Shown: positions 20,190 through 23,514, counted from the stretch's first letter. The stretch is DNA of 32,000 nt from Nanopusillaceae archaeon (GCA_049974095.1 JBMFJD010000004.1:30001-62000); one strand, 5' to 3'. Made by a program: numbers and translations. The notes: generated from the letters alone by a model not told the origin.

Positions 20190-20732
20190 TTATTTAAATT
20201 TTTTATTTATTTCCATCACTTTAGCCAATTCTTCATCCTTTACTGAGAAATTATTTATTAATTCATTTATTTTATCTTCAGGAATATTTTTACTCTTCAT
20301 TTTTCTTTTAATCATTTCTATTCTTTTCTTATCCTTTAAGTTTAATCTTAATATTACTAATTTTGAATGATGAATTGGTCTATAAACTTCTTTTCCTTTT
20401 TTATTTGTAAATTTTACATTATCTACATATACTTTATATCTTTTCCTATCAATATAAACAACAAATCCTTCTACATTTCTATATTTTCCCCTTAAAACTT
20501 TAACATAATCTCCAACTCTTAGGGGCAAAGAATTTATATTTATTATCTTTTTGATATCTTTTGATAACATAGACGAAATAATTTTTCCTCTAATATGTAA
20601 AGGAGCATTAATTATATATTTTCTTTGCTTCTTTGGCTTCTTAGAGCTTTTCCAAGAAGAACTCCAATTATCATAATTTATATTTTTGATTTCTAATACC
20701 ATTTTATACAATAATACTTGCAATTTTTCCAA
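20190..20732 (-). CDS. rpl24: 50S ribosomal protein L24 (uL24) with terminal extensions
   Basis: SKKPKKQRKYIINAPLH and the KOW motif VGDYVKVLRGKYRNVEG. The likely start is MVLEIKN at 20702, just after the rpl14 stop. The C-terminal extension is about 35 aa compared with typical archaeal L24. Confidence 0.85.
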   Translation of the reverse strand: MEKLQVLLYKMVLEIKNINYDNWSSSWKSSKKPKKQRKYIINAPLHIRGKIISSMLSKDIKKIININSLPLRVGDYVKVLRGKYRNVEGFVVYIDRKRYKVYVDNVKFTNKKGKEVYRPIHHSKLVILRLNLKDKKRIEMIKRKMKSKNIPEDKINELINNFSVKDEELAKVMEINKKFK

Positions 20733-21108
20733 TTTCTGGCCATCTTTCTACAACCTCTCTTGCTACAGGTCCTCTAATTACGGTACCTGCTGATAATCCA
20801 GTTTTTTCATCTTTTATTATTATACATGCATTATCTTCAAACTTTATTCTTGTTCCATCTTTTCTTTTATATTCTTTTCTTTGTCTTATTATTACTGCCT
20901 TCATTACTTTTCCTACTAATGATAAATCTCCATCAATAATTGAAACATAAACCACATCTGCGATTCCTGCTCTAGCATATCTTCTCTTTATACCTTTATA
21001 TCTTAAAACTGAAATTACTTTTGCTAATTTTGCTTTTGAATTATCAGCAACTTTTAATATTGTTCCAACCGTGATCCCTTTTGTAACCTTTGCATTTATT
21101 GCCTTCAT
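20704..21108 (-). CDS. rpl14: 50S ribosomal protein L14 (uL14)
   Basis: 134 aa. The LKVADNSKAK...IIRQRKEY.R.DG..I.F.DNA pattern is present. Confidence 0.9.
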   Translation of the reverse strand: MKAINAKVTKGITVGTILKVADNSKAKLAKVISVLRYKGIKRRYARAGIADVVYVSIIDGDLSLVGKVMKAVIIRQRKEYKRKDGTRIKFEDNACIIIKDEKTGLSAGTVIRGPVAREVVERWPEIGKIASIIV

Positions 21109-21440
21109 ATTTTGTTAATTATAACAAACTTGATTGTTTTTGATAAGGGCCTTGTTTCTCCAATTAATACTTTGTCTCCAACATTAATATTTAAGCACTT
21201 TGGTACATGCGCTTTTATTTTTGATATTCTAATTTCATATCTTTCATATTTTGGTATATAATAATATTTTGCAAATTTAACTAATGCAATTCCATGTTTT
21301 ATTCTTATTACTTCTCCTTTAAATATAAATCCCCTTATCCTAACTTCTCCATGCCATGGGCATTTTTTATCATTACATGTATTTTCTGGAGGATTTACTC
21401 CTTCTATTCCAATATCTTTAACATGAACCTTCTGTGCCAT
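21105..21440 (-). CDS. rps17: 30S ribosomal protein S17 (uS17)
   Basis: 111 aa. CNDKKCPWHGEVRIRG and GDKVLIGETRPLSKT motifs. Confidence 0.9.
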   Translation of the reverse strand: MAQKVHVKDIGIEGVNPPENTCNDKKCPWHGEVRIRGFIFKGEVIRIKHGIALVKFAKYYYIPKYERYEIRISKIKAHVPKCLNINVGDKVLIGETRPLSKTIKFVIINKI

Positions 21441-21452
21441 GTTTCTTATAAG

Positions 21453-21460
21453 TTATAAAT
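21453..21460 (+). promoter_or_regulatory. TATA-like box upstream of the C/D sRNA / DUF488 transcript
   Basis: TTATAAAT is centred about 26 nt upstream of the C box at 21482. The AT-rich background limits specificity. Confidence 0.3.
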
Positions 21461-21481
21461 AATTTTAAAAATAATGTTTGT

Positions 21482-21531
21482 ATGATGAAGGATCAACGAT
21501 CTGAGGAGATGATGAATGATGGGCAAACTGA
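21482..21531 (+). ncRNA. C/D box sRNA (canonical boxes, two 12-nt guides)
   Basis: ATGATGA(21482-21488)-AGGATCAACGAT(12)-CTGA(21501-21504)-GGAG-ATGATGA(21509-21515)-ATGATGGGCAAA(12)-CTGA(21528-21531). All four boxes match consensus, with the ideal archaeal C-12-D'-spacer-C'-12-D geometry. Confidence 0.75.
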
Positions 21532-22039
21532 GATATATACGCTAGGTCATTCTAATAGAAATATAGAGGAATTCTTGGAGATATTAAAAAAGAAAGATAT
21601 AGATATTGTTATAGATGTAAGATTAATACCTGGATCAAATAAATATCCACAATATAACAAAGAAAATTTAGAAAAATACTTAAATAATAATAATATTGAA
21701 TATTTACATTTAAAGGAGCTTGGAGGATTTAGAAAACCTTTAAAAGATTCTAAAAATATATGGTGGAGAAATAAAAGTTTTAGAGGATTTGCAGATTATA
21801 TACAAAGGACAGAATTTAAAGATGTAATAAAAAAATTGATAGAAATTGCAAAAAATAAGAAAGTAGTAATAATTTGCTCTGAGAAAAATCCTTATAGATG
21901 CCATAGAAGAATAATATCTGACTATTTATCATTAATATATAATGTTAAAGTAATACATATAATTGATAAAAATAGAGAAGAAGAACATAAAGTTACTAAA
22001 TCTACAAAAATAATCAATAATGATATTATTTATCAATAA
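21482..22039 (+). CDS. DUF488 family protein
   Basis: EIYTLGHSNR...IDVR..P.S...P.....L and ...CSEKNPYRCHRRIISDYL are DUF488 hallmarks. The family usually starts just before the IYTxGHS strand, so the real start is probably the ATG at 21509 or 21512, inside the sRNA C' box. Confidence 0.7.
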   Translation: MMKDQRSEEMMNDGQTEIYTLGHSNRNIEEFLEILKKKDIDIVIDVRLIPGSNKYPQYNKENLEKYLNNNNIEYLHLKELGGFRKPLKDSKNIWWRNKSFRGFADYIQRTEFKDVIKKLIEIAKNKKVVIICSEKNPYRCHRRIISDYLSLIYNVKVIHIIDKNREEEHKVTKSTKIINNDIIYQ

Positions 22040-22040
22040 T

Positions 22041-22469
22041 TTAGTGGGCGGCTTCCGTGCTTTCCCGGCCTTCGCCAGTACTCACACAGACGTGGGCCGG
22101 CTTAACTTCCGTGTTCGAAATGGGTACGGGTGTTTCCCGGCCACTTTGGCCGCCCTTGATTTTATCATTTCCATGAACCTTTTTTAAATCTTTTCTTATA
22201 TTGAATCTCTTAACATATCCACAATATAAACATTTATATATAATTCTTCCTCTTCTTATCCTTATTTGTAATGTTTTACCGACAATCCATGGAGTATAAC
22301 ATCTTTTACAAAATTTATTTCTTAAATTTTTTGGCAATCTAATTCTAGCTTTATTTTTTATTTTCCATAAAATATAAATATATCTTCTAGATAATTCTAA
22401 ATTATCAATATTTTCTATTGCTTTCTTATATAAATATTCTATTCTCTTTATTGCTGTTTTTTTATACAT
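22041..22469 (-). CDS. rnp4: RNase P protein component 4 (Rpp21/Rpr2-like zinc ribbon); ORF extends through the 5S rRNA gene
   Basis: Residues 1-93 fit the Rpp21 pattern (SRRYIYIL...IRLPKNLRNKFCKRCYTPWIVGKT..IRIRRGRIIYKCLYCGYVKRF). There is no stop codon before the 5S gene, so residues ~105-142 are encoded by 5S rDNA. Confidence 0.7.
   Translation of the reverse strand: MYKKTAIKRIEYLYKKAIENIDNLELSRRYIYILWKIKNKARIRLPKNLRNKFCKRCYTPWIVGKTLQIRIRRGRIIYKCLYCGYVKRFNIRKDLKKVHGNDKIKGGQSGRETPVPISNTEVKPAHVCVSTGEGRESTEAAH
22043..22156 (-). rRNA. rrf: 5S ribosomal RNA
   Basis: The minus strand reads AGGGCGGCCAAAGTGGCCGGGAAACACCCGTACCCATTTCGAACACGGAAGTTAAGCCGGCCCACG...GGAAGCCGCCCACT. It contains the conserved CCCGnACCCATTTCGAACnCGGAAGTTAAGCC core, and the terminal helix GGGCGGC/GCCGCCC closes. 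About 114 nt, GC-rich, with no 16S or 23S nearby. Confidence 0.92.
22180..22188 (-). promoter_or_regulatory. TATA-like box for 5S rRNA embedded in the Rpp21 coding sequence
   Basis: The minus strand reads TTTAAAAAA (encoding ..DLKK..), centred about 28 nt upstream of the 5S 5' end. Confidence 0.3.
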
Positions 22470-22812
22470 ATATTTTTACTTCCTTTTCTTCATTTTTATC
22501 AATATTTTTTACATATAATAAAATATAATCATCTTGACTTGCATTTACTTTTGGTATTAAAACTTCTATATTTTGTTTTCTATATTTATCAATTGAAATA
22601 ACAATTGGAGAAATTAAATTATAATATAATCTAAATTTTAAGGCAATATATTGATCTTTAAAATATATATACTTCGTTCCTATTTCAAATTTCCTTATAT
22701 ATGGAGAATGATTCTTAATTGTTAATATAACTTTCTTTGAGTATTTCAAATTATCAACATCTGTAGATATATTTACTTCTACATCCCATCTATCTTCCAA
22801 TTCTTCCATCAT
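22462..22812 (-). CDS. Hypothetical protein (beta-rich, no recognised family)
   Basis: 116-aa ORF that overlaps pth2 (ATGA) upstream and rnp4 (8 nt) downstream, so it is probably co-translated with them. Confidence 0.5.
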   Translation of the reverse strand: MMEELEDRWDVEVNISTDVDNLKYSKKVILTIKNHSPYIRKFEIGTKYIYFKDQYIALKFRLYYNLISPIVISIDKYRKQNIEVLIPKVNASQDDYILLYVKNIDKNEEKEVKIYV

Positions 22813-23162
22813 AATAATTTTAATGTTCCTGTTATTTTATCAATCTTATCTTCATAATCTGGGCCTATACCTATGCATGTTATAGTACCTGGTTCTAATT
22901 GAGTTAAACCAGCATCCTTTATTAATACAGTATTTAATCCTTCATTTTTTGCTTTATTATATATATCCATTAATTTTTCTAAATTTTCTACATAAACAAC
23001 AACCTTCTTGGCTCCTTCTTCTCTCCATTTTTCTACAATTTCTTTATTTTTATTTAATTGCTCTAATACACACTCAACTGCAGCATGGGCTACTTGAACA
23101 CACAACTTTCCTTTTCCAATATCTAAATCTTTTCTAACTACAACTACTAATTTATAAACCAT
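22809..23162 (-). CDS. pth: Peptidyl-tRNA hydrolase, archaeal type (Pth2)
   Basis: 117 aa. KLVVVVRKDLDIGKGKLCVQVAHAAV and LIKDAGLTQLEPGT..C.GIGP are PTH2 signatures. Confidence 0.9.
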   Translation of the reverse strand: MVYKLVVVVRKDLDIGKGKLCVQVAHAAVECVLEQLNKNKEIVEKWREEGAKKVVVYVENLEKLMDIYNKAKNEGLNTVLIKDAGLTQLEPGTITCIGIGPDYEDKIDKITGTLKLL

Positions 23163-23514
23163 CTAATCCTTTTAATTTTTCTAATAAAAACTTTAATTTA
23201 TAATTATCTAGTTTTTCATTTATTATTTCTTCATCTAATTTTTTATATAAGTCATCTAATTTTTTATTTATTTCATTTAGAACAGAATATATATTCTTTA
23301 TTTCATTTTCTAAATTATTATATTTATTTTCAATCATATTTATTCTTTCGTCTCTTTTTTTATCTAATTCTTGAATATTTAAAATTTCACTTTTCATTTT
23401 ATTTGTTTCCTCTTTTACATCATCTACATATTTCTTTAAATTTTCTAATATCTCTTCATATTTATCAAAGTCCAATAACCTATTAATAATTTTATCATAA
23501 CCTAAATCATCCAT
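23152..23514 (-). CDS. Hypothetical coiled-coil protein
   Basis: 120 aa, K/E/N/L-rich with heptad character. It overlaps the pth2 start by 11 nt. Confidence 0.5.
   Translation of the reverse strand: MDDLGYDKIINRLLDFDKYEEILENLKKYVDDVKEETNKMKSEILNIQELDKKRDERINMIENKYNNLENEIKNIYSVLNEINKKLDDLYKKLDEEIINEKLDNYKLKFLLEKLKGLDGL

Follow-up and report, generated by a model that had tools for sequence, protein, structure and literature searches.

In the genome of this Nanopusillaceae archaeon, a box C/D guide RNA gene of 50 nt overlaps the start of a DUF488 gene, and it is very probable that the resulting sRNA of about 50 nt guides methylation of 16S rRNA residue U8 and that DUF488, fused to the sRNA gene, is expressed from a read-through mRNA. 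The sRNA would assemble with L7Ae, Nop5, and fibrillarin, and its D' guide would pair with nt 6-15 of the nascent 16S rRNA and direct the 2'-O-methylation of U8. This part of the 16S rRNA makes up the loop of helix 1 and subsequently the 5' strand of the central pseudoknot, so that the RNP would have to act at an early stage and then dissociate. As an archaeal C/D sRNA with a guide common to sR14-like RNAs, the locus is of an ordinary kind; for the genome, it means one RNA gene missing from the annotation and one predicted site of rRNA modification. It also corrects the reading of DUF488, whose promoter and start codon would be taken from the RNA gene, so that this 0.76-Mb symbiont offers a clear case of gene overprinting. 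This capture and the wide conservation of a guide directed to the central pseudoknot are the features worth recording. Coordinates refer to the window, i.e., the whole 32,000-nt stretch of DNA analyzed (Table 1).

Table 1. Features of the sRNA-DUF488 locus in window coordinates.
Feature	Position	Strand	Remarks
rps17	21105-21440	-	First gene of divergent ribosomal-protein operon; marks conserved sRNA position
Probable archaeal promoter (tentative)	21453-21475	+	TTATAAATA (21453-21461), then TTTTAAAAATAAT (21463-21475)
Box C, AUGAUGA (DNA ATGATGA)	21482-21488	+	Also first two in-frame AUGs of the long ORF
D' guide, 12 nt, DNA AGGATCAACGAT, RNA AGGAUCAACGAU	21489-21500	+	Antisense to 16S nt 6-15
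Box D', CUGA (DNA CTGA)	21501-21504	+	From sequence and alignment
D'-C' linker GGAG, 4 nt	21505-21508	+	From sequence and alignment
Box C', AUGAUGA (DNA ATGATGA)	21509-21515	+	Its two AUGs are the nearest in-frame starts 5' of the DUF488 core
D guide, 12 nt, DNA ATGATGGGCAAA, RNA AUGAUGGGCAAA	21516-21527	+	
Box D, CUGA (DNA CTGA)	21528-21531	+	From sequence and alignment
DUF488 CDS	21509-22039	+	Start at 21509 or 21512 (box C') or at 21482 (box C); stop ends at 22039
5S rRNA gene	22043-22157	-	Convergent with DUF488

The sRNA gene and its conservation in the order

A preliminary description of this DNA had claimed an exact archaeal C/D architecture at 21478-21535, and all of its elements, including the boxes, the 12-nt guides, and the GGAG linker, were recovered inside that interval in a unit of 50 nt (21482-21531, + strand), in which AUGAUGA and CUGA are the terminal boxes C and D and the D' and C' boxes lie between them. 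A strict composite pattern (RTGATGA, 10-14 nt, CTGA, 2-12 nt, RTGATGA, 10-14 nt, CTGA) gave five matches in the 764-kb genome compared to none in 20 shuffled genomes; the assembly has 25% G+C and its rRNA genes are G+C-rich. The other strict matches together with a half-motif scan of the genome yielded approximately 14 further sRNA loci with guides matching rRNA or tRNA over 9-11 contiguous bases (the positive control), and the organism therefore clearly uses C/D guides. The genome encodes fibrillarin (PF01269, 288 bits), Nop5 (PF01798, 198 bits), whose gene adjoins the fibrillarin gene on contig C1, and L7Ae (PF01248, 100 bits). The sRNA at 21482-21531 was not detected by Rfam at gathering thresholds. 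In a search of sequencing runs, the interval 20800-23200 was matched by a hot-spring DNA metagenome, probably the source sample, and by no RNA run among those listed; RNA-seq data are available for N. aerobiophila (DRA011278). The analysis supported the reading of this stretch as a real archaeal box C/D guide RNA, as predicted from its sequence. Among other loci, a C/D-like sRNA outside the window (G000 contig C2, ~20655-20725, - strand) displayed UAAUGA, a guide to 16S nt 897, and CUGA ... CUGA, and stopped 3 nt before tRNA-Arg(GCG); it looks like an sRNA-tRNA dicistron and was likened to the previously described sRNA8-tRNA-Val of N. equitans.

A pattern search identified the C box and D' guide in 13 of the 21 genomes of the order, comprising 11 of the 13 genomes of the same genus (this one included), one from a second genus, and one from a second family. 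The boxes and the D' guide core GGAUCAACGA (DNA GGATCAACGA) were invariant in these 13 genomes, except that box C, constant at positions 2-7, has A or G at position 1. Variation in the alignment was found in the linker (GGAG, TAAA, TATA, ATA, and ATG) and at both ends of the guide, i.e., its first base (A/T/C) and the one adjoining box D', and an invariant core with varying guide ends is the pattern expected if guide positions 3-11 pair with a target. The 16S genes of these relatives are merely 85-93% identical to that of this genome, making the conservation of the sRNA meaningful. The 16S 5' end was invariant in all 15 SSU genes recovered from the order and consequently no covariation is visible within it.

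The sRNA is an independent conserved gene, mostly with no DUF488 behind it (11 of the 13 sRNA-bearing genomes), a feature overlooked in the preliminary description. No ORF follows the sRNA in nine of the 11 sRNA-bearing genus members; in those nine, an A+T-rich spacer containing a T5 run 15 nt downstream comes after box D, and the frame opened by box C meets stops. The relative G011 carries the 5S gene directly 3' of the sRNA with no DUF488 between them. In the relative G001 (L003:1501-1600), the homologous sRNA precedes a second C/D-like unit, UGAUGA GCAUCGGAUCUGCGG, and the two look like a tandem pair.

Promoter, start codon, and the DUF488 overlap

The sRNA probably has its own promoter and is divergent from rps17 across the genus. 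In this genome the putative promoter lies within the 41-nt spacer between rps17 and the sRNA, and a TATA-like block, ATTATAAATA..TTTAAAAATA, was found upstream of the sRNA in all 11 genus members, at a distance to the C box that differs by 6 nt between subclades; beyond the block, the reverse-strand start codon CAT of rps17 was conserved in the genus alignment. The exact assignment in 75% A+T DNA is tentative because the A+T-rich context leaves the promoter ambiguous, and the upstream regions of other sRNA and tRNA genes in this genome were also too A+T-rich to fix a TATA distance. The TTATAAATA element starts 29 nt before the C box and in N. equitans box A lies ~26-27 nt upstream of the transcription start (PMC3491384). 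If the N. equitans spacing holds, transcription would start at or 1-2 nt before 21482.

The long ORF (21482-22039, 185 aa) begins at the first base of box C and encodes a DUF488 protein (Pfam PF04343, 112 bits vs. a cut-off of 22). The checked ORF agreed with the preliminary description in that the sRNA coincides with its first 17 codons and that the conserved N-terminus IYTLGHS, an instance of the [IVL][YW]T[IL]GHS strand, starts just 3' of box D (residues 18-24). A PDB sequence search for DUF488 gave no match. DUF488 was present in three of the 21 genomes of the order, i.e., this genome, Nanobdella aerobiophila, and G011. The N. aerobiophila orthologue (68% identity) lies in the same place and is likewise fused to the sRNA, whereas the G011 paralogue (47% identity; N-terminus MKIYTIGHS) is free-standing at an unrelated locus with its own upstream region. 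Most relatives have a linker of 3 nt, whereas the 4-nt linker here preserves the reading frame from the C box into DUF488.

Both fused copies have in-frame AUGs solely in box C' (two) and box C (two; GUG-AUG in N. aerobiophila). IYT is preceded by a GAG or GAA codon, and no start codon occurs between box C' and IYT. These copies have no space for a separate promoter and no T-run behind box D, such that co-transcription from the sRNA promoter is the parsimonious reading. With neither a start codon nor a promoter of its own, DUF488 would have to be translated from read-through of the sRNA transcript, and this accessory gene appears to borrow both signals from the sRNA gene. The sRNP and the mRNA would then be alternative fates of one transcript, since a transcript whose 5' end is assembled into the sRNP and trimmed to 50 nt would be lost or blocked as an mRNA. 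L7Ae bound to k-turns in mRNA leaders has reportedly been proposed as a means of translational control in archaea.

The AUGs of box C', advanced in the preliminary description as the real start, are plausible but unproven in that role. Of the 111 DUF488 homologues that show the N-terminal motif, 84 carry at most nine residues before it, compared to 7-8 residues with a box C' start and 17 with a box C start; the G011 paralogue has a similarly short MKIYTIGHS, and the NCBI annotation of the N. aerobiophila orthologue (175 aa) starts at the second box C' AUG. The predicted transcription start near the C box and a 16S rRNA without CCUCC weigh against it. On balance, box C' is slightly favored as supplying the translation start. 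DUF488 could instead be leaderless and start at the box C AUG (21482) to give 185 aa, a reading of appreciable but minority probability. A leaderless start at 21482 is made possible by the predicted transcription start at or 1-2 nt before this position and by the 16S 3' end, GGAUCUAGUUUA, which lacks CCUCC and renders the choice of an internal AUG by a Shine-Dalgarno sequence unlikely; in addition, the frame is open from box C in both fused species. However, a 17-residue extension exceeds that of most DUF488 proteins, NCBI starts the orthologue at box C', and the open frame and its phase would arise from a single shared event with an estimated chance of about 1 in 6. A start outside both boxes is improbable. 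The GGAG linker was rejected as a Shine-Dalgarno sequence as it abuts the AUGs (spacings of 0 and 3 nt) and the 16S rRNA is without CCUCC.

The 16S 3' end (L001:2975-3010; G000 contig C1, ~35071-35106) reads GGAUCUAGUUUA and not GGAUCACCUCC, and the bases that follow, AUCUCCACUGC, form a processing stem with GCAGUGGAGAU of the 5' leader. Mature 16S rRNA thus seems to be without an anti-Shine-Dalgarno sequence, which suggests leaderless or Shine-Dalgarno-independent initiation genome-wide. An Rpp21-like ORF on the minus strand (22041-22469) spans the entire 5S rRNA gene.

The D' guide and the 5' end of 16S rRNA

A guide of an archaeal C/D sRNA is expected to form at least 9 bp with a stable RNA and to be Watson-Crick paired at N+5. 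The single 16S gene of this genome begins ATTCCCGTTGATCCTGCGG, so that the nanoarchaeal CCCG variant named in the preliminary description is correct for this organism. Alignment of the guides to the rRNAs and tRNAs bore out the earlier claim of a D' guide complementary to the start of the 16S rRNA, giving 10 contiguous Watson-Crick pairs with nt 6-15 (CGUUGAUCCU) and an A:U pair at N+5. Ten contiguous pairs have a probability of 0.006-0.015 by chance (random, shuffled, or genomic 12-mers vs. 7.7 kb of rRNA and tRNA). The guide bases next to box D' (A and U) face 16S C5 and C4 and are unpaired. In this register the N+5 rule selects the first U of GUUGAUCC, the residue named previously, which is 16S U8 in Rfam-model numbering. 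It corresponds to E. coli U13 if standard E. coli numbering is applied to the aligned columns that Dennis et al. (2015) give in Additional file 4. The D' guide is therefore predicted, from complementarity, to direct 2'-O-methylation of U8.

The genome collection (185,579 species) was scanned with the pattern TGANGA-N-GGATCAACS-NN-CTGA, which matched at least 120 stretches. The 80 loci among the matches listed comprised approximately 74 archaeal and six bacterial loci, the latter by estimate about the number that chance predicts. The same guide in the same register was present in at least 70 other archaeal genomes, from thermophiles, including Candidatus Nanopusillus and Nanobdella aerobiophila loci that carry the same RNA. 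Among the matches listed, it abuts box D or D' in Thermococcus, Desulfurococcales, Sulfolobales, Bathyarchaeia, Nitrososphaeria, Methanomethylicia, Nezhaarchaeales, and one Njordarchaeota genome, among others; whether it serves as the D' or the D guide depends on the lineage. As the same guide recurs across lineages, these matches indicate that it is a member of a widespread family and not a lineage invention, and its presence in many thermophilic archaeal lineages had been overlooked in the preliminary description. Canonical archaea combine 16S CCGGUUGAUCC with the guide GGAUCAACC (GGATCAACC) among the matches listed; nanoarchaeal 16S CCCGUUGAUCC is accompanied by GGAUCAACG (GGATCAACG), found among the matches listed only at Nanopusillus/Nanobdella loci. 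The switch from G:C to C:G, with C for G in the 16S rRNA and G for C in the guide, is compensatory. A guide over the 5' strand of the 16S central pseudoknot is thus widespread in thermophilic archaea and covaries with the nanoarchaeal 16S variant. The partner guides are lineage-specific; several fit other segments of the 16S 5' domain (CACCGCUAUAGC at nt 28-38, CUAAGCCAUGCC at nt 45-57, and UUUAUUGGGCCU / AGGCCUAAAG at ~nt 558-574).

The closest known RNAs are Thermococcus/Pyrococcus sR14 (RF01145) and Ignicoccus hospitalis IHOsR155, in which a 12-nt guide, GGAUCAACC(GG), abuts box D' or D and is complementary to 16S CCGGUUGAUCC in the same register with N+5 on the same U. In RNA-seq-verified IHOsR155, GGGATCAACCGG directly precedes CTGA and the RNA ends GGGAUCAACCGG CUGA (Dennis et al., 2015, PMC4644070, Additional file 1); this end is complementary to the I. 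hospitalis 16S 5' end, and the label I155 is absent from the 16S target alignment of that paper. A homologous sR14-like sRNA of Thermococcus kodakarensis has the guide AGGAUCAACCGG. The window RNA differs from sR14 in its partner guide and in having G where theirs has C, fitting the nanoarchaeal 16S rRNA, and it scored 21.3 bits against the sR14 model (gathering threshold 38) compared to 43-52 bits, above the threshold, for Thermococcus loci with the same guide. As the guide in the Rfam sR14 consensus (cGGAUCuA-CGg) differs from that of Thermococcus, the Pyrococcus target is not certain.

A total of 26 C/D sRNAs have been verified by RNA-seq in N. equitans (Randau, 2012, PMC3491384) and the window RNA resembles them in its ~50-nt length, C/D'/C'/D boxes, 12-nt guides, and lack of a terminal stem. 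Some N. equitans sRNAs are transcribed from a promoter of their own, with the box C purine as the first nucleotide, and several overlap protein genes (PMC3491384), but these overlaps are not described as supplying a start codon as in the DUF488 fusion. In contrast to the window RNA, none of the 26 has a GAUCAACG guide, and the pattern of box C and D' guide was not found in the N. equitans-like genome G002. N. equitans sRNA5 targets 16S nt 28, the site matched by the D guide of the homologue in the relative G005 (nt 28-38).

Methylation of U8 is the preferred role, and a second one, with or without methylation, was weighed in which the RNP is chiefly a folding chaperone keeping the helix-1 loop single-stranded on nascent pre-16S rRNA as U3 does, its D guide perhaps also touching the decoding-site strand 1401-1408. 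U3 is likewise a box C/D-class RNP that pairs with the SSU rRNA 5' end across the pseudoknot strand (PMC8339473). The duplex here covers the equivalents of E. coli nt 11-20, including pseudoknot nt 17-19 (alignment numbering and standard 16S structure), the guide is kept across many archaeal lineages, partner guides elsewhere often fit the 16S 5' domain (nt 28-38, 45-57, and 558-574), and chaperone roles have been proposed for double-guide sRNAs (Dennis et al., 2015, PMC4644070). However, the guide has the layout usual for methylation, including Watson-Crick pairing at N+5, the fit of the D guide to 1401-1409 is no better than chance would give a single guide, and neither U3-like nor processing or chaperone-only snoRNPs were known in archaea according to a 2021 review (PMC8339473), leaving a chaperone role unlikely. 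In U3, moreover, pairing involves boxes A and A' of a 5' extension as well as the 5' ETS, boxes B and C are present, and methylation does not take place, none of which applies here; no Rfam U3 match was obtained at E ≤10 and no guide match in the 300-nt 16S leader. Failing every structural feature of U3 and scoring below threshold for every Rfam family, the RNA was filed as an archaeal C/D sRNA. That the RNP mainly holds the pseudoknot 5' strand unpaired in early 30S assembly, as a U3 counterpart and possible precursor, is a still bolder and distinctly unlikely proposal; its scope would be the guide kept from Nanopusillaceae to Thermococcales, Thermoproteota, and an Asgard genome, and in this genus it may act jointly with the decoding-site strand 1401-1408. 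No paper linking archaeal C/D sRNAs to the central pseudoknot was found in a literature search and, as no archaeal U3-like snoRNP is known, the guide family is a concrete candidate to test in Thermococcus or Sulfolobales.

A different target for the D' guide, 23S nt 94-105 (ACCGUUGAUCUC), offers eight Watson-Crick pairs and one G:U and also pairs guide position 1, but it is very improbable: the match is shorter than that to 16S, the variants at guide position 1 (U, A, C) break the 23S pair, and the pan-archaeal guide and its C-to-G switch follow the 16S 5' end and not this site. Lastly, the motif lies wholly within an open reading frame and could be a coincidence in a DUF488 N-terminal extension with no sRNA made, which is hardly credible given that the same 50 nt are kept in 11 genomes without the ORF and with in-frame stops, that the composite motif was absent from the shuffled genomes, and that the RNP genes are present.

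Candidate targets of the D guide

The preliminary description had also derived a target for the second guide, for which no strong match was found on aligning the guide to the rRNAs and tRNAs. No target as good as those of the other sRNAs here was identified in 16S, 23S, tRNA, 5S, RNase P RNA, or the pre-rRNA flanks; the tRNAs and 5S, and the RNase P RNA and 300-nt pre-rRNA flanks, gave no D-guide match. A search of the whole assembly displayed no perfect complement of 10 nt or longer other than the antisense of the gene itself, a whole-genome scan allowing mismatches was uninformative in 75% A+T DNA, and SRP RNA was not found with RF01857.

All 11 genus members share the D guide core UGAUGGGC (DNA TGATGGGC) without change; in the three positions adjoining box D, AAA is replaced by TGG in N. 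aerobiophila, and G011 has an extra A. The best candidate, 16S nt 1367-1375 (GCCCGUCAA), gives seven Watson-Crick pairs and one G:U in this genome and eight plus one in most relatives. Several equally good sites exist at chance level, and GCCCGUCAA alone was both invariant and top-ranked in every genome. At 16S GCCCGUCA, N+5 would fall on the equivalent of E. coli C1402, which carries a 2'-O-methyl group in both bacteria and eukaryotes. Human SNORD43 and snR70 are the guides for 18S Cm1703 and Cm1639, respectively, at the equivalent position. Like SNORD43, the D guide core could pair with GCCCGUCA and place N+5 on this residue; it differs in that pairing is limited to 7-8 Watson-Crick pairs and one G:U starting from guide position 4, and the C'-to-D half scored a sub-threshold 16 bits against the Rfam SNORD43 model (E 0.2-0.5, threshold 45). 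The C1402 equivalent is consequently a candidate target, possible though rather doubtful, with a strength at chance level for a single guide.

Four other sites were rejected. The 23S site at ~nt 2047 (CUAGCCCGUCAC) changes to GCCCGCCA or GUCCGCCA in relatives with the guide unchanged; that at ~nt 1290 (GCCCAUCAG) is in a variable hairpin absent here and in G006, G007, and G011; 23S ~nt 1156, homologous to the D target of N. equitans sRNA18, has an internal mismatch at N+5; and at 16S ~nt 240 the N+5 pair would be a G:U in this genome.

The neighboring 16S nt 1372-1381 are the target of a different sRNA encoded here (contig C2, ~69,600) and likewise of N. equitans sRNA13. The G020 MAG contained two different full-length 16S genes (L016 vs. 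L031), one of which has a differing 1400-region (CACUGCCCGUCACGCC) and probably derives from a host or contaminant contig. From the 76% complete G004 genome no sRNA was recovered; its 16S decoding-site strand reads GCCCAUCAUGCC vs. the near-universal GCCCGUCA (L022:1942-1986) and would be perfectly complementary to the D guide core of the present sRNA, AUGAUGGGC.
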